From assembly GCF_044324875.1 (NCBI RefSeq), contig NZ_CP172185.1: DNA of 64,000 bases. The stretch is one strand, 5' to 3'. Under the pieces are notes generated by a model. It saw only the letters and a list, made by a program, of their open reading frames with translations. It was not told the DNA's origin and ran no database searches. The position numbers and the translations under genes were made by a program. Source of the stretch: Escherichia coli (GTDB lineage: Bacteria > Pseudomonadota > Gammaproteobacteria > Enterobacterales > Enterobacteriaceae). This document shows, one piece after another, positions 2,353 to 44,642 of the stretch (its first letter is position 1; the number at the start of each line of letters is the position of its first letter).

Positions 2353-3173
2353 AGATGAATAAATCCGTCGTAGACATGTACCGCCGGGCCAGTCATATAT
2401 AACGGGTGACCCGGACCTTTCCAGGCGATATCAAGACGACCGCCGGGGAGTTCCACGCGTACTTCTTCGGCCAGCAAACCTTGCTGAATCCCTACCGCCA
2501 CCGCCGCACATGCGCCGCTGCCGCAGGCCTGGGTTTCTCCTGCCCCACGCTCATAAACGCGTAAACGAATATGCTCGCGCTTAACCACTTGCATAAAACC
2601 GATATTGGCGCGCTCCGGAAAACGCTCATGGCTTTCCAGAACAGGACCAAGCGTTTCTACCGCCGCGGTATCGACATCATCGACCTGAATCACGCAGTGC
2701 GGATTTCCCATCGACACCACGCCACATAAGATTGTCTGCTCGGCGGCGCGCATAATATAGGTCTTTTCCGCTTTGTTAGCGCGAAACGGCACAGCGGAAG
2801 GTTCGAAGTTGGGCTCGCCCATGTTTACGCGAACCAGATCATCATCGGTGACGGTCAGAACCATCCGCCCGTTGGCGGTGCTGACGCGGATATCGCGCTT
2901 ATTGGTCAGCCCTTTCAGACGCACAAAACGGGCAAAGCAGCGCGCGCCGTTGCCGCACTGCGCCACTTCACTGCCATCGGCATTGAAAATGCGATAGTGA
3001 AAATCCAGTTCAGGATCATACGGTGGCTCAACCACCAGCAGTTGGTCAAACCCTACCCCCAGGTGCCGATCCGCCAGGCGACGAATCAGCTCCGGTGAAA
3101 AAAAGACATTCTGCGTTACCGCGTCGACGACCATAAAATCGTTGCCAAGGCCATGCATTTTCGAGAACTGCAT
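2349..3173 (-). CDS. dapF: Diaminopimelate epimerase
   Basis: ORF translation matches DapF ([17 protein letters not shown]...); 274 aa from the second Met; catalytic Cys motifs GNGARC and ACGSGA present. Confidence 0.95.
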
Positions 3174-38542: not shown

Positions 38543-39808
38543 ATGAGCAAAACACATTTAACAGAACAGAAGTTTTCCGACTTCGCCCTGCATCCGAAGG
38601 TTGTAGAAGCCCTTGAAAAAAAAGGGTTTCATAACTGTACGCCCATTCAGGCACTGGCCCTTCCGCTGACGCTGGCGGGTCGTGACGTAGCCGGGCAGGC
38701 GCAAACCGGTACCGGGAAAACGATGGCGTTTCTTACGTCAACGTTTCATTATCTTCTCTCTCATCCCGCGATTGCCGATCGCAAGGTGAATCAACCGCGT
38801 GCCTTAATTATGGCACCGACGCGTGAACTTGCCGTGCAGATCCACGCCGACGCGGAACCGCTGGCGGAAGCTACCGGCCTGAAGCTGGGTCTGGCTTACG
38901 GTGGTGATGGCTACGACAAACAGCTGAAAGTGCTGGAAAGCGGCGTTGACATTCTGATTGGCACCACGGGGCGTTTAATTGACTACGCCAAGCAGAACCA
39001 CATTAACCTCGGTGCCATTCAGGTAGTTGTACTGGACGAAGCCGATCGCATGTACGATCTGGGCTTTATTAAAGATATCCGCTGGCTGTTCCGCCGTATG
39101 CCGCCTGCAAACCAGCGCCTCAACATGCTGTTCTCCGCCACGCTTTCGTACCGGGTACGTGAACTGGCGTTCGAGCAGATGAACAATGCCGAATATATTG
39201 AAGTGGAACCGGAACAGAAAACGGGCCACCGTATTAAAGAAGAGCTTTTCTACCCTTCTAACGAAGAAAAAATGCGTTTGCTGCAAACGCTGATCGAAGA
39301 AGAGTGGCCAGACAGAGCGATTATTTTCGCCAACACCAAACACCGTTGTGAAGAGATCTGGGGCCACCTGGCGGCAGATGGTCATCGTGTCGGTTTGTTG
39401 ACAGGCGATGTCGCGCAGAAAAAACGTCTGCGTATTCTTGATGAATTTACCCGTGGGGATCTGGATATTCTGGTTGCCACCGACGTTGCCGCGCGTGGCC
39501 TGCATATCCCGGCTGTGACGCACGTCTTTAACTACGATTTACCCGATGACTGTGAAGATTACGTTCACCGTATTGGTCGTACAGGTCGTGCAGGCGCAAG
39601 CGGTCACTCTATTAGTCTGGCGTGTGAAGAGTATGCATTGAATTTGCCTGCTATTGAGACCTATATTGGTCACTCAATTCCGGTAAGCAAATACAATCCG
39701 GACGCATTGATGACCGATCTGCCAAAACCGCTGCGCCTCACGCGCCCGCGCACAGGCAATGGTCCGCGTCGTACTGGCGCTCCGCGTAATCGTCGTCGTT
39801 CAGGTTAA
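38543..39808 (+). CDS. rhlB: ATP-dependent RNA helicase RhlB (DEAD-box)
   Basis: 421-aa ORF with GTGKT, DEAD and SAT motifs and Arg-rich C-terminus. Confidence 0.95.
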
Positions 39809-39943
39809 ATAAAAAATGTCATACTCAAAATCATTCAAACTGGATCAAGATGGCAAGAGAATGAATCCCGATGCGCATGCTGTAGTAAGTGATTTGGGTG
39901 AAAGAACGCAGCCAACGCAGAGACAGATTGAAGGATGAAGAGT

Positions 39944-41428
39944 ATGGGTTCCACCTCGTCGCTGTATGCAGCCATTGATCTCGGTTCGAATAGTTTTCAT
40001 ATGCTGGTTGTGCGCGAGGTGGCTGGAAGCATCCAGACGCTGACGCGAATTAAACGCAAAGTGCGTCTGGCTGCTGGCCTGAACAGCGAAAATGCCCTCT
40101 CTAATGAAGCAATGGAGCGCGGTTGGCAATGTTTGCGCCTGTTTGCTGAACGTCTGCAAGATATCCCTCCCTCGCAAATTCGCGTTGTCGCTACGGCGAC
40201 ATTACGACTAGCCGTCAATGCGGGTGATTTTATCGCCAAAGCACAGGAAATCCTTGGCTGCCCGGTACAAGTCATCAGCGGTGAAGAAGAAGCCCGCCTG
40301 ATTTATCAGGGGGTGGCCCACACAACAGGCGGTGCCGATCAGCGCCTGGTGGTGGATATAGGCGGTGCCAGTACTGAACTGGTAACCGGCACGGGTGCAC
40401 AAACCACCTCGTTGTTCAGCCTGTCGATGGGCTGCGTCACCTGGCTGGAACGCTATTTTGCCGATCGTAATCTGGCGCAGGAAAATTTTGATGCTGCAGA
40501 AAAAGCGGCACGCGAAGTGTTACGTCCGGTTGCCGATGAATTACGGTATCACGGCTGGAAAGTGTGCGTTGGCGCTTCCGGCACCGTGCAGGCGTTACAG
40601 GAAATCATGATGGCACAGGGGATGGATGAACGCATTACCCTGGAAAAGTTGCAGCAACTGAAACAGCGAGCCATTCATTGCGGTCGGCTGGAGGAACTGG
40701 AGATTGACGGGCTGACGCTGGAACGTGCGTTAGTGTTCCCGAGTGGTCTGGCAATCCTGATAGCCATTTTTACCGAACTGAATATTCAGTGTATGACCCT
40801 GGCAGGTGGTGCGCTGCGTGAAGGCCTGGTCTACGGCATGTTGCATCTGACCGTCGAGCAGGATATTCGCAGCCGTACGCTGCGTAATATTCAGCGCCGC
40901 TTTATGATCGATATTGATCAGGCACAGCGCGTAGCCAAAGTTGCGGCTAACTTCTTCGATCAGGTGAAAAACGAATGGCATCTTGAAGCAATAAGCCGCG
41001 ATTTGCTCATCAGCGCCTGCCAGCTTCATGAAATCGGCCTGAGCGTTGACTTCAAACAAGCGCCGCAACACGCTGCTTATCTGGTACGTAATCTGGATCT
41101 TCCCGGTTTTACCCCCGCACAGAAAAAACTGCTGGCGACGCTACTGCTCAACCAGACTAACCCGGTCGATCTCTCATCGCTGCATCAGCAAAATGCCGTA
41201 CCGCCGCGCGTCGCAGAACAACTCTGCCGTTTACTACGCCTGGCCATCATTTTTGCCAGCCGTCGTCGTGACGATCTCGTGCCAGAGATGACATTACAGG
41301 CTAACCATGAACTGTTGACCTTGACGCTTCCGCAAGGTTGGCTAACCCAACATCCGCTGGGTAAAGAGATTATTGATCAGGAAAGCCAGTGGCAGAGCTA
41401 TGTCCACTGGCCGCTGGAAGTGCATTAA
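39944..41428 (+). CDS. gppA: Guanosine pentaphosphate phosphohydrolase
   Basis: Translation from [22 protein letters not shown] (Ppx/GppA family), 494 aa. Confidence 0.95.
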
Positions 41429-41437
41429 TGAGTAAGT

Positions 41438-41470
41438 GCCGGATGCGATGCTGACGCATCTTTTCCGGCC
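41438..41470 (+). terminator. REP-like hairpin, probable gppA terminator
   Basis: gccggatgcgatgctgacgcatc followed by tttt; same 23-mer as 19918-19940. Confidence 0.6.
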
Positions 41471-41474
41471 TTGA

Positions 41475-43496
41475 TTATTTCCCTCGTTTTGCCGCCATCA
41501 TCGCTTTCAGATTCGCCAGATGGCTTTGCCCTTTCTGCATCCGTTCTTCGGCGCTGACCACTTTGCGCTCCTGTTCCCAAATCAGATCATCCTGCGGCAG
41601 CTCCAGCAGGAAGCGGCTCGGCTCCGGGCGCACCAGTTCGCCGTACTGACGGCGTTCTTTACACAGCGTAAAGGTCAATTCCTTCTGGGCGCGGGTAATG
41701 CCGACATAGGCCAGCCGCCGCTCCTCATCGATATTATCTTCATCGATGCTGCTTTGGTGCGGCAAAAAACCTTCTTCCATACCGACCATGTAGACATAAG
41801 GAAACTCCAGCCCTTTCGACGCGTGGAGAGTCATCAGTTGCACCTGATCCAGCTCTTCTTCACTCTCACCACGCTCCATCATGTCGCGCAAAGTAAAGCG
41901 CGTCACCACCTGGGTGAGCGTCATCGGCTCATCCAGTTCGCTGCCCTCCAGCATCTCCGTCATCCAGCTAAACAGTTGGTTGACGTTCTTCATGCGCATT
42001 TCGGCGGCTTTCGGGCTGGGCGATGTTTCGTACAGCCAGGATTCATAATCCATGCCGTGGATCAGATCGCGCACCGCGGCAATCGGCTCCCGCTCCGCCA
42101 GACGCTGGATTTCTGCCAACCAGTGAGTGAAGCGGGTCAATGCTTCATAACCACGTCCGCTAAGCGTCTGACTCAGGCCCATATCAAAGCTGGCGGTAAA
42201 CATGCTTTTATTGCGCGTCATCGCCCACTCACCCAGCTTTTTCAGCGTCGCCGGGCCAATCTCTCGCTTCGGCGTGTTAACGATACGCAGAAATGCGCTG
42301 TCATCGTCCGGGTTAGTCAGCACGCGCAGATAAGCCAGCAAATCCTTGATTTCAGGACGAGAGAAAAACGACGTACCACCGGATATTTTGTACGGGATGC
42401 GGTTTTGCATCAGGAATTTTTCAAACACCCGCGACTGATGGTTGCCGCGATAAAGAATGGCGTAATCTTTGTACTGCGTTTTATTGACGAAGTGATGCGC
42501 GATCAGCTCGCCGGTAACTCTCTCGGCTTCATGTTCTTCGTTATTCGCGCTTAAAACTTTTAGCTCCGCGCCATAGCCCAGTTCGGAGAACAGACGCTTT
42601 TCAAAGACGTGCGGGTTATTGGCGATCAGGATGTTCGCCGCTTTCAGAATACGTCCGGAAGAGCGGTAGTTCTGCTCAAGCTTAATCACCTTCAGTGCCG
42701 GGAAATCCTGACTCAACAGCACCAGGTTTTGCGGACGTGCACCGCGCCAGGAGTAGATCGACTGATCGTCATCGCCAACTACGGTAAAGCGCGCGCAGCT
42801 GCCCACCAGCAGTTTCACCAGTTCATACTGGCTGGTGTTGGTGTCCTGATACTCATCCACCAGCAGGTAGCGAATTTTGTTCTGCCAGCGTTCACGAACT
42901 TCTTCATTGCGTTGCAACAGTAACGTCGGCAATAAAATCAGATCATCGAAGTCGAGAACGTTACAGGCTTTCAGGTGTGCATCATACAGCCCATAACAAT
43001 GGGCAAAAATACGGTCCCGCTCGCCCTTTGCCTCTGCCGCCGCCTGCGCCGGAGTTTTGAGATCGTTCTTCCAGTTGGAGATGGTCGAAATCAGCTGTTG
43101 CAGGAGAACTTTGTCATCTTCAATCAGCCCCTCGGTCAGCTCTTTAAGCAAAGCAAGCTGATCGGTATCGTCAAACAACGAGAAGTTTGCTTTCATCCCA
43201 AGCGCCGCATACTCGCGTTTGATGATATCCAGCCCCAGTGTGTGGAAGGTGGAGATCATCAGCCCACGCGCCTCTTTGCGACCCAACGTCTGCCCGACAC
43301 GCTCTTTCATCTCGCGCGCCGCCTTATTGGTAAAGGTCACCGCCGCGATATGTCGCGCCTGATAACCGCAACCGCGGATCAGATGGGCGATTTTATTGGT
43401 GATGACACGAGTTTTACCGGAACCCGCGCCTGCCAGCACCAGGCAGGGGCCGGTAACGAATTCGACAGCTTGTTGTTGGCCGGGGTTTAGACGCAT
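41475..43496 (-). CDS. rep: ATP-dependent DNA helicase Rep
   Basis: Translation from [31 protein letters not shown] (673 aa), UvrD/Rep superfamily I helicase. Confidence 0.95.
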
Positions 43497-43713
43497 AGGT
43501 ATATTGCTCAATCTTCGAACGGGGGGGAGGATTGTAGCAGAATCGCATTTGAATGTGACCGAGTGAAAACCGCTAACCGGATGGCTGCGGATGTTTAAAT
43601 CAGAGAGGGAAGGCCGAAACCGGAGTTCATCATGAATCCATTAGACTTAGAAAATATTGGGTCGTAACGTTGTGTTATTACTTTTTCAGAGTTTACTAAG
43701 GAGAGGTTTACTC

Positions 43714-44163
43714 GTGGCGATTAATTTCAGCCCCAAGGTTGGTGAAATACTGGAATGCAACTTTGGTAACTATCCTGTTAGCCAGAATGGACAGATCAGT
43801 ACGGCGTATTACGATGGCCGCATTCCACCTGAGATGATAAAAAATAGGTTGGTTGTCGTGCTCAACGGAAAAATTAATGGCAACGCATGTATCGTCGTTC
43901 CATTATCAACCACTCGCGACCATGACAAGTTAAATCGTGGAATGCATGTTGAAATAGCCAGTAATGTTATCAATGACCTGCAATTCTTTGATCATCAGAT
44001 ACGTTGGGCTAAAGCCGACCTGGTACAACAAGTCAGTCGAAACCGATTAAACAGAGCAAGGACTTATCGGGGGTATCTTAATCAATGTTTGCCACATGAG
44101 TTGGTTGCAGACATACAGAGGGCAGTCATCAAGTCAATCAATGCCATATCGCTCATAAATTGA
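43714..44163 (+). CDS. yifN: PemK/MazF-like toxin-fold protein (yifN-like), apparently intact
   Basis: GTG start at 43714 after AAGGAGAG RBS; 149 aa; MazF-like pattern GEILECNF...RLVVVLNGK...CIVVPLSTT...HVEI...WAKADLVQQVSRNRL; syntenic between rep and ppiC. Confidence 0.6.
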   Translation: MAINFSPKVGEILECNFGNYPVSQNGQISTAYYDGRIPPEMIKNRLVVVLNGKINGNACIVVPLSTTRDHDKLNRGMHVEIASNVINDLQFFDHQIRWAKADLVQQVSRNRLNRARTYRGYLNQCLPHELVADIQRAVIKSINAISLIN

Positions 44164-44291
44164 CAATAAAATCACCATCCCTGATAATGACTCTGTAGCC
44201 CATAGAGGCCCTAAGTTTTCTCCCCTTGAGGGACCTGCGAAGCCCGGATTTTCCGGGCTTTTGCCATATATGTCCCCCCCTCCCTGACTGA

Positions 44292-44597
<306 letters not shown>

Positions 44598-44601
44598 CAG
44601 C

Positions 44602-44626
44602 AAGGCCTTCTTCAGGAGAAGGCCTT
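44602..44626. terminator. Bidirectional terminator hairpin between ppiC and ilvC
   Basis: Perfect palindrome aaggccttcttcaggagaaggcctt between convergent stop codons. Confidence 0.7.
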
Positions 44627-44642
44627 GAACTCTGAATCGCTA

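Follow-up and report, generated by a model that had tools for sequence, protein, structure and literature searches.

The locus described here lies within a 64,000-nucleotide stretch of an Escherichia coli genome (hereafter the window), in which the gene order is gppA, rep (minus strand), yifN (plus strand), ppiC (plus strand), ilvC (minus strand) and ilvY. The initial annotation, made from the letters of the sequence, had placed an intact reading frame of 149 aa with a GTG start and a good ribosome-binding site between rep and ppiC, and all of this is borne out: the frame is preceded by a Shine-Dalgarno element at a spacing of 10 nt, ends in a TGA stop codon (44161-44163) and is flanked by rep and ppiC in the orientations just given (Table 1). 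The GTG start fits the N-termini of the homologues in a 37-sequence family alignment, in which the diverse full-length members begin at a common position with the pattern M-[AP]-I-x-[FY]. Because the frame has a Pfam match (described below) and 147 homologues at E<=1e-3, those aligned sharing a start position, and because dN/dS against the Superficieibacter orthologue is 0.05, sequence comparison indicates that yifN is a real gene under strong purifying selection and no chance ORF. An alternative start has been suggested by Ribo-RET, which is reported to place a yifN initiation site upstream in BW25113 and BL21 (10.1101/520783); this site may correspond to the in-frame TTG codon at 43657. Thousands of E. 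coli genomes have this ORF annotated by PGAP under the product name 'type II toxin-antitoxin system PemK/MazF family toxin', and the JGI family name reads 'uncharacterized protein YifN (PemK superfamily)'. The reading frame and its family assignment are ordinary and annotated already; the value of the locus lies in its partner RNA.

Table 1. Annotated and predicted features of the yifN locus; positions count from the first letter of the window.
Feature	Position	Strand	Basis and remarks
Candidate in-frame N-terminal extension, TTG 43657	43657..43713	+	168-aa ORF; use uncertain
yifN Shine-Dalgarno AAGGAG	43698..43703	+	10 nt before GTG; read from sequence
yifN CDS	43714..44163	+	GTG start, 149 aa, MazF/PemK fold; E40, R45, S65 at MazF E24, R29, T52 positions
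His70 codon	43921..43923	+	third base T43923 deleted in K-12
sigma70-type promoter of the sRNA	44160..44188	+	TTGACA-17-GATAAT, 11 of 12; best match of promoter scan
Predicted yifN-associated sRNA, ~68-72 nt	44195..44266	+	5' end inferred from promoter; 3' end = K-12 Term-seq end
Hairpin 1 GCC-CAUAGA-GGC	44198..44209	+	conserved position and stem variants among loci
Hairpin 2 UCCC-CUUGA-GGGA	44221..44233	+	RNAalifold, compensatory variants
Intrinsic terminator AAGCCCGG-AUUUU-CCGGGCUU then UU	44240..44262	+	covariation (5 of 8 pairs), Term-seq 3' end

The expectation that K-12 carries a disrupted copy of the gene proved correct. The MG1655 yifN (b3777) is a pseudogene of 449 bp, and its alignment with the window assigns the lesion to the loss of a single T, corresponding to T43923, which is the only length difference between the two copies; the frameshifted product ends ...TTRD-QTS-stop after 72 aa, as against the full-length protein encoded here. 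This exact one-T-deletion allele is found in at least 1228 of 5426 complete E. coli genomes, and 363 were found to have the intact version present in O157:H7. The locus as a whole is subject to a presence/absence polymorphism, being carried by 4011 genomes and replaced between rep and ppiC by an unrelated 86-bp spacer in ~1414 (about 26%). Other truncated forms of YifN exist among the homologues.

The PemK/MazF-like character of the protein, read initially from the motifs RLVVVLNGK, CIVVPLSTT and WAKADLVQQVSRNRL, all of which are found in YifN, is upheld by sequence and structure searches alike. The search against Pfam PF02452 (PemK_toxin), which had been recommended as a check, returned a significant match (E 2.7e-11) of residues 26-141 to model positions 3-108 of 109, and precomputed annotation places the PemK_toxin domain on nearly all full-length YifN homologues. 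The two results that would have overturned the initial annotation, a missing PemK/MazF profile match and a K-12 yifN of equal, intact length, did not materialise. An AF2 model computed from a 37-sequence alignment (pLDDT 77, pTM 0.73) predicts the MazF/CcdB-type beta-barrel with its C-terminal helix, and the best 50 Foldseek matches of this model in the PDB are all MazF proteins, with probability 1.00, E down to 9e-6 and target TM-scores mostly of 0.64-0.79; the top structural matches are M. tuberculosis MazF-mt1, mt3 and mt9, S. aureus MazF and B. subtilis MazF/EndoA. Only the fold search was informative in the PDB, where sequence searches with the single YifN protein and with the family profile returned nothing useful. 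NCBIfam holds no family and PADLOC no model for YifN, and its PHROG match is to a function-unknown family and hence uninformative. The YifN clade is small and discrete, amounting to 491 clusters at E<=1e-3 among 1.84 billion representatives.

Seventeen columns are invariant among 37 diverse family members, including G10, C15, P39, E40, K43, R45, N51, P63, S65, H78, K100 and R111. A MAFFT alignment that includes E. coli MazF, B. subtilis EndoA and Kid places E40, R45 and S65 of YifN on E24, R29 and T52 of MazF, on E20, R25 and T48 of EndoA and also on the corresponding positions of Kid, and it shows three insertions in YifN relative to canonical MazF. Independently of MAFFT, hhalign pairs VVPLS65 of YifN with CVPCT52 of MazF. 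Equivalents of the catalytic arginine and threonine/serine of MazF (R29/T52) and of its glutamate (E24) are thus present and, in these 37 sequences, invariant. With these residues conserved on a MazF fold, YifN looks like an active RNase and no dead homologue, and it is predicted to be a sequence-specific endoribonuclease toxin.

The genomic settings of yifN are diverse. In E. coli and Superficieibacter the gene occupies the rep-ppiC interval, in Serratia it lies between a lipoprotein gene and merR, in Pseudomonas within a small-ORF island that is found on IncP plasmids and in integrated elements, and in Roseateles after a WYL regulator and a 349-aa ORF. Homologues are also carried by ETEC-type IncF/IncX plasmids and by a mobile element, where its neighbours in a defence-island-like region include a UvrD-like helicase and a PDC-S32/AbiJ-like gene. 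In Glaesserella, 6-kb plasmids carry yifN directly behind the primase/rep gene, and on one 6.3-kb plasmid it is accompanied only by rep, mob and lnuC genes. A DNA-binding protein gene lies directly upstream of yifN in some lineages, namely a wHTH-like ORF in Herbaspirillum and a CI/LexA-like one in Vibrio. A link between yifN and UvrD-type helicases, suggested by the divergent arrangement with rep in E. coli and with a 660-aa helicase on the mobile element, was dismissed as coincidence, because the latter helicase shares no more with Rep than the superfamily motifs and helicases are absent from most of the contexts.

Directly downstream of yifN in the window lies a predicted small RNA gene. 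The -35 hexamer of its sigma70-type promoter (TTGACA, 44160-44165) overlaps the yifN stop codon and is separated by a 17-bp spacer from the -10 hexamer (GATAAT, 44183-44188); the predicted RNA folds into two hairpins and ends in an intrinsic terminator which serves the sRNA and presumably yifN as well. A simple terminator scan missed this element because its T-run comprises only 4 T, and it was recognised from sequence, covariation and Term-seq. In MG1655, Term-seq has recorded an 'orphan' 3' end at 3,959,909 on the minus strand, with about 40,000 reads in two conditions (PMC7815308). This end falls 3 nt beyond the U-run of the sRNA terminator, and it could instead belong to the yifN mRNA. When the E. 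coli RNA is folded by itself, its 5' half pairs differently in the minimum free energy structure. Two short ORFs of 21 and 27 aa with TTG starts overlap the RNA region and run through the terminator; they are unlikely to be conserved genes, because other species show indels in the hairpin loop and the terminator loop. Searches with Rfam 15 gave no relevant match at E<=1 in the window and none reaching the gathering score in 20 homologous loci, and ARAGORN found no tRNA or tmRNA at the RNA. TRF detected no tandem repeat in 43300-44500, and the other direct and inverted repeats of the locus are short, chance-level matches; ToxI-like tandem repeats, considered as a candidate, were not found at the locus.

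Evidence that this element is a gene in its own right comes from comparative analysis. When yifN flanks from four unrelated contexts are aligned, the segment of ~100 nt that runs from the promoter to the hairpin and T-run is conserved more strongly than the 3'-terminal part of yifN itself. The arrangement of a -35 hexamer, a spacer of 16-18 bp, a -10 hexamer, a further 6-7 nt and an RNA beginning with G follows yifN in the majority of the 44 species-level loci that a genome-collection scan supplied and in a further set of loci; represented among them are Photorhabdus, Xenorhabdus, Pantoea, Serratia, Chimaeribacter, Pseudomonas, Intestinirhabdus, a Legionellaceae MAG, Roseateles, Rubrivivax, Herbaspirillum and Xanthomonas. 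Most homologous loci retain the promoter hexamers at this spacing around a spacer of varying sequence, and the hexamers match the consensus more weakly in some genera, for example Photorhabdus and Roseateles. A covariance model of the RNA, built from 24 sequences, finds one strong match in the 64-kb window, namely the sRNA (79.3 bits, E 3e-18), the other match being the reverse strand of the same terminator with an E of about 1. With a cutoff of E<1e-3 the model matches beside yifN in 47 of the 57 sources searched, and it finds nothing in two controls that lack yifN, a yifN-less E. coli locus and the aberrant HH97 locus.

The predicted structure is likewise conserved. In an alignment of 41 sequences, fitted to the model, 95.8% of the cells are paired and compensatory changes occur in 9 of the 15 pairs; none of 500 shuffles of this alignment reaches the observed structure scores, which collapse in slid controls, and a MAFFT alignment of the RNA shows covariation in the same direction. 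RNAalifold independently predicts hairpin 2 and the terminator but does not predict hairpin 1, which with its 3 bp is too short. Hairpin 1 recurs at one and the same position in each of the 27 RNAs inspected, with a loop of the form C(A/U)U(N)GA and a stem that is GCC/GGC in most loci, GGC/GCC in two (L055 and L057), CGG/CCG in the Pasteurellaceae and GCC/GGU in Herbaspirillum. The compensatory stem variants of hairpin 2 are UUCC/GGAA, GUCC/GGAC and GCC/GGC. The two hairpins have similar C(A/U)U(N)GA loops and are identical in the Pasteurellaceae, and two Burkholderiales have three hairpins. The RNA core remains 74-98% identical where the synonymous sites of yifN are saturated (pS 0.68-0.97), and between the window and K-12 all 72 nucleotides of the RNA are identical, although all of the neighbouring genes differ by about 4%.

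The position of the RNA gene relative to yifN is not fixed. In Shewanella the two genes are convergent, and in Herbaspirillum (two copies) and Massilia the RNA gene is upstream of yifN on the opposite strand; judging from orientation and position in these three genera, the RNA gene appears to be independent of yifN transcription. The linkage was also approached from the RNA side: a degenerate RNA pattern run over metagenome contigs returned 120 loci, of which the covariance model validated 10. Most of the 120 pattern matches are due to chance and only the validated ones were used; each of these 10 has a yifN ORF, intact or K-12-like, immediately upstream. We are confident that the RNA gene exists and that it is linked to yifN. 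By comparative sequence criteria, a promoter-driven structured small RNA gene accompanies yifN in Gamma- and Betaproteobacteria, on plasmids and on mobile elements. Full-text literature searches, which mostly covered sources other than subscription journals, returned no functional study of yifN and no mention of the RNA.

A more distant clade of homologues, 28-34% identical, occurs in Alphaproteobacteria, in a gammaproteobacterial and a planctomycete MAG and in Vinavirales phage-like elements of Vibrio. In each of these groups a TTGACA-type promoter overlaps or abuts the end of the gene and is followed by a longer RNA that starts with GUU and continues with a 5' hairpin and a YU(N)AAGAC motif. 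The covariance model detected no RNA beside the distant homologues; the arrangement suggests that these longer RNAs are homologous to the E. coli-type RNA.

What might such an RNA do? On balance we lean towards the view that yifN and the ~70-nt RNA gene form an undescribed type III-like toxin-RNA antitoxin module, the function of the RNA being deduced from comparative data. In this module YifN would be a sequence-specific endoribonuclease toxin and the RNA its antitoxin, acting by direct binding, a role for which the case is nearly even with at most a slight tilt in favour. Each of the two hairpins would occupy one RNA-binding groove of a YifN dimer in the manner of a pseudo-substrate; the near-equivalence of the two hairpins, identical in the Pasteurellaceae and extended to three in two Burkholderiales, points to one binding site per subunit. 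With a promoter so close to consensus, the RNA would outnumber a toxin that is weakly expressed, and the 3' end of the yifN mRNA would carry the RNA sequence too. Once transcription stops, whether through phage-induced shut-off or through loss of the element, a labile RNA would decay and free the RNase, which would lead to abortive infection or post-segregational killing. K-12 would represent a decayed copy, in which the toxin is frameshifted and the harmless RNA gene retained. Some homologues of yifN are plasmid-borne, and others lie in a defence-island-like region or beside a prophage repressor; these settings, together with the patchy distribution and the combination of a frameshifted toxin with an unchanged RNA, fit toxin-antitoxin biology.

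In its broadest form the proposal is that the YifN clade, whose members are present in most E. coli genomes and also on IncF/IncX and IncP plasmids and in phage-like elements of Vibrio, constitutes a widespread but unrecognised type III-like class, in which a single-copy, promoter-driven sRNA with two hairpins neutralises a dimeric RNase as a pseudo-substrate. The 'orphan' PemK/MazF proteins of the clade would then be mislabelled as type II, and K-12 would hold a silent remnant from which the antitoxin RNA is still expressed. For this wider claim we see the balance as level.

The most serious competitor is a ribonucleoprotein that does not involve neutralisation of a toxin: the RNA may be a substrate which YifN processes to an active form, or a cofactor or guide for the RNase, for instance in defence against foreign RNA. 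The co-inheritance of RNA and yifN speaks for such a complex just as it does for an antitoxin, the conserved RNA loops could be cleavage sites, the homologues in defence-island-like and prophage contexts are compatible with it, and ToxN too processes its own RNA partner. Yet the RNA is short, its sequence is highly conserved and it lacks a variable segment of the kind expected of a guide, and in K-12-type strains the protein has been lost while the RNA is unchanged, which is a better fit to a harmless antidote than to a useless cofactor, albeit not decisive. We regard the ribonucleoprotein as unlikely.

Regulation at the level of the toxin mRNA is improbable. The RNA would here be a trans-acting antisense regulator, type I-like, that pairs with the yifN mRNA and blocks its translation or stability; RalR/RalA and SymE/SymR are precedents for the control of non-peptide toxins by an sRNA. 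The CU-rich segment UCUCCCCUU could indeed pair with the Shine-Dalgarno region AAGGAGAG with 7 matches in 8 positions, but this segment is sequestered in hairpin 2, and RNAduplex predictions for the RNA core against positions -60 to +60 of yifN in 10 species reveal no consistent site, the z-scores being mostly between -2 and +1. Moreover, the sequence and loop motifs of the RNA are conserved from Enterobacterales to Burkholderiales, whereas the 5' regions of yifN cannot be aligned.

Very improbable, in our estimate, is a classical type II system whose protein antitoxin has escaped recognition by being encoded elsewhere, very small or lineage-specific. The PGAP product name speaks for it, as do the upstream genes for DNA-binding proteins in Herbaspirillum and Vibrio, which could encode a protein antitoxin there, and an 83-aa upstream ORF in some of the Pseudomonas copies; against it stands the absence of this ORF from loci L005 and L006. 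The initial annotation had seen no small antitoxin ORF upstream of yifN, and the scan of the rep-yifN gap agrees: no ORF of >=20 aa lies wholly inside it, and those that overlap it (two that emerge from the start of rep, the TTG-initiated in-frame extension of yifN and an antisense ORF of 24 aa) are not conserved in other yifN contexts, so that an upstream small antitoxin ORF was rejected. Neither is there a conserved adjacent small ORF among the contexts in E. coli, Superficieibacter, Serratia, Pseudomonas and Roseateles, on the mobile elements and on the small plasmids; the gaps beside yifN on the mobile element (144 bp), in Serratia (155 bp) and in E. coli hold no conserved ORF. The definition of a type II system does not apply, because no adjacent small ORF is common to the unrelated contexts, and on the 6.3-kb plasmid yifN is joined by rep, mob and lnuC alone. 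The suggestion in the initial annotation that YifN is an orphan or inactive toxin homologue, in which case the downstream element would amount to the yifN 3' UTR and terminator plus a fortuitous promoter-like sequence, accords with the decay of the gene in many E. coli genomes, the lack of a known antitoxin and a Term-seq end compatible with a plain mRNA terminator, but it is highly improbable given the invariance of E40, R45 and S65 in 37 sequences, the dN/dS of 0.05 and the conserved partner sRNA (promoter to 3' end, 44160-44266), whose hexamers and 17-bp spacing persist while the spacers have diverged, whose strand or placement with respect to yifN is altered in Shewanella, Herbaspirillum and Massilia, and in which both hairpins before the terminator show compensatory changes and conserved loops.

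Returning to the preferred toxin-RNA antitoxin module, its two components resemble different classes of known systems. With the type II toxins MazF, PemK (Kid) and EndoA, YifN has in common the fold, Pfam PF02452, the Glu-x4-Arg and Thr/Ser positions and the C-terminal helix. It differs from them in that no MazE/PemI-type antitoxin gene occurs in the contexts examined, in its linked small RNA gene and in its length, which exceeds theirs by ~35 residues, a 16-residue insertion in the beta1-beta2 region being one of three; the adjacent, co-transcribed protein antitoxin gene of a type II system was not encountered at the yifN loci examined. A type I system is also a poor match, since the yifN RNA is encoded on the same strand without overlap with the mRNA, and YifN is a soluble 149-aa protein of MazF fold rather than a small hydrophobic toxin.

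The likeness to the type III systems ToxIN, CptIN and TenpIN (with AbiQ) lies in the pairing of a protein endoribonuclease, an activity that is inferred for YifN, with an adjacent non-coding RNA gene, and it extends to the plasmid and phage-defence contexts and to the similar RNA units that are repeated, here as two or three hairpins. ToxN is structurally related to Kid/MazF. The anatomy is different: ToxI consists of tandem repeats of 34-45 nt upstream of the toxin gene with a terminator between the two, while the yifN RNA is a single unit of ~70 nt without tandem repeats, encoded downstream and driven by its own sigma70 promoter. In contrast to ToxN/AbiQ, CptN and TenpN, the Pfam match of YifN is to PemK_toxin only, and its listed structural neighbours are all MazF. 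A precedent for a single, non-repeat sRNA antitoxin exists in the type III system AvcID, where it inhibits a protein toxin that is released upon phage-induced transcription shut-off (PMC10511110). AvcD differs from YifN in being a deoxycytidylate deaminase and no RNase, and AvcID has no sequence relation to the yifN module. AvcI is encoded upstream of avcD and overlaps it. A structured RNA associated with pemK-family genes is known as well, the pemK RNA motif of Rfam, which occurs in the 5' UTRs of pemK operons in Firmicutes; Rfam 15 gives no match to it at the yifN RNA, in the window or in the 20 homologous loci. The module shares the logic of type III systems and differs from every described type III anatomy.

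That homologues are carried by ETEC and IncP plasmids, by a defence-island-like region and by DNA beside a prophage repressor suggests a role in plasmid maintenance or abortive infection. If the proposed reading is true, YifN would be the first member of the MazF family to be controlled by an RNA instead of a protein antitoxin, and the module would form a bridge between type II (MazF) and type III (ToxN) systems, the toxins of which are suspected to share a common ancestry. The 'type II' label, a systematic error of annotation where a protein partner is lacking, would be corrected, and the compact pair of an RNase and its inhibitor RNA may be of use as a tool. E. coli K-12, in which Term-seq shows an abundant 'orphan' 3' end, would gain a new RNA family, and a long-standing 'orphan toxin' or pseudogene entry of E. 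coli would turn out to be a complete and testable toxin-antitoxin or defence module.

The module formed by yifN and the sRNA directly 3' of it is polymorphic in E. coli, being carried by 4011 of 5426 complete genomes. Where it is missing, an unrelated 86-bp spacer stands in place of the entire rep–ppiC intergenic region, and since the DNA upstream of rep is thereby also exchanged in full, rep must use different upstream sequences in each genome type. Every gene across window 39935-47158 is about 3-4.5% divergent from K-12 (rep 96.4%, ilvC 95.8% and ppiC 96.8% identical), which places the window in a lineage of E. coli remote from that of K-12; the nearest complete genome over this interval is that of an O158:H23 strain (99.8%).

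One aberrant locus was encountered in E. coli HH97, where the rep–ppiC gap lacks yifN and the sRNA and is occupied by a low-complexity, G-rich sequence of about 700 bp. This stretch resembles a G-'hypermutated' ghost of the module, its 3' part being alignable by eye; the gap has neither annotated genes nor a match to the sRNA covariance model R1. It is probably an artefact of assembly or base-calling.

An in-frame TTG at window 43657 would lengthen YifN by 19 residues. A Ribo-RET preprint reports initiation in BW25113 and BL21 at the annotated yifN start and at an upstream site (10.1101/520783), and the 5' end of the frameshifted K-12 gene is thus still translated. At the other end of the module, Adams et al. 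2021 (PMC7815308, supplementary files 1 and 3) recorded by Term-seq an 'orphan' 3' end at MG1655 3,959,909 (-), with about 39,000-41,000 reads, which they classed by its distance of 96 nt from the downstream gene ppiC. This end matches the position of the sRNA/yifN terminator. A C-to-T change reported from a long-term evolved MG1655, located 78 nt past yifN, falls at the base of this terminator (PMC5460176). Between the terminator and ppiC, K-12-type genomes have 46 bp that are absent from the window, and this segment looks like a local duplication because it repeats the motif CCCTGACTGACAATT.

Coordinates of the loci and features discussed (L numbers denote compared loci; A1, alignment)
Feature	Locus	Coordinates	Remarks
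Spacer of module-less E. coli	L015	1098-1183	compared with window 43500-44300
G-rich DNA, HH97 (NZ_CP116409)	L014	5110-5800	
TTG extension of yifN	window	43657-43713	
Term-seq 3' end	window	44266	L001 (MG1655) 2910
Site of K-12-type insert	window	44277-44278	A1 columns 647-692
Region of yifN copy on mobile element	L022	1239-5468	
UvrD-like helicase, 660 aa, divergent	L022		one flank of yifN; PADLOC 'Helicase' PDLC03002; with 212-aa ORF
PDC-S32/AbiJ-like gene, convergent	L022		opposite flank of yifN
Herbaspirillum sRNA copies, winged-helix-like ORF and yifN	L056	1484-1719 (-), 1959-3145 (+)	
Glaesserella and Haemophilus paracuniculus yifN-like loci	L017; L061	1914-2460; 2501-3050	
Loci of distant PemK-like relatives and their RNAs	L191; L063 and L065-L069	401-1070; about 2850-3060	

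A yifN copy of 72% identity, accompanied by its own sRNA, lies on a mobile element bearing ParA, an integrase and Tn3, and its surroundings look like a defence island. The UvrD-like helicase beside it echoes the adjacency of yifN to rep, itself of the UvrD family, in E. coli, which is probably a coincidence. In Herbaspirillum the sRNA gene is present as a tandem pair, which lies upstream of yifN and on the other strand; its YifN is extended C-terminally to 214 aa and is preceded, 12 bp upstream, by a winged-helix-like ORF of 176 aa. In Massilia (L053) the RNA is likewise upstream and on the opposite strand.

On small Glaesserella plasmids a yifN-like gene begins 3 bp after the end of the primase/rep gene, and a comparable copy is present in Haemophilus paracuniculus. 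The RNA 3' of the gene has hairpins with CGG/CCG stems in either case: two identical hairpins (CGG-CUUAGA-CCG) in Haemophilus, and loops of CUUAGA and CAUAGA in Glaesserella. The search with model R1 did not find these RNAs.

PemK-like relatives at a greater distance (27-34% identity) are encoded in phage-like elements of Vibrio (Vinavirales), where a CI/LexA-like repressor gene directly precedes them, in Alphaproteobacteria, and in one gammaproteobacterial and one planctomycete MAG. On the 3' side of each lie a promoter resembling the consensus and a longer RNA with the pattern GUUCCC...YU(N)AAGAC...terminator, and these RNAs may constitute a second, related RNA family.
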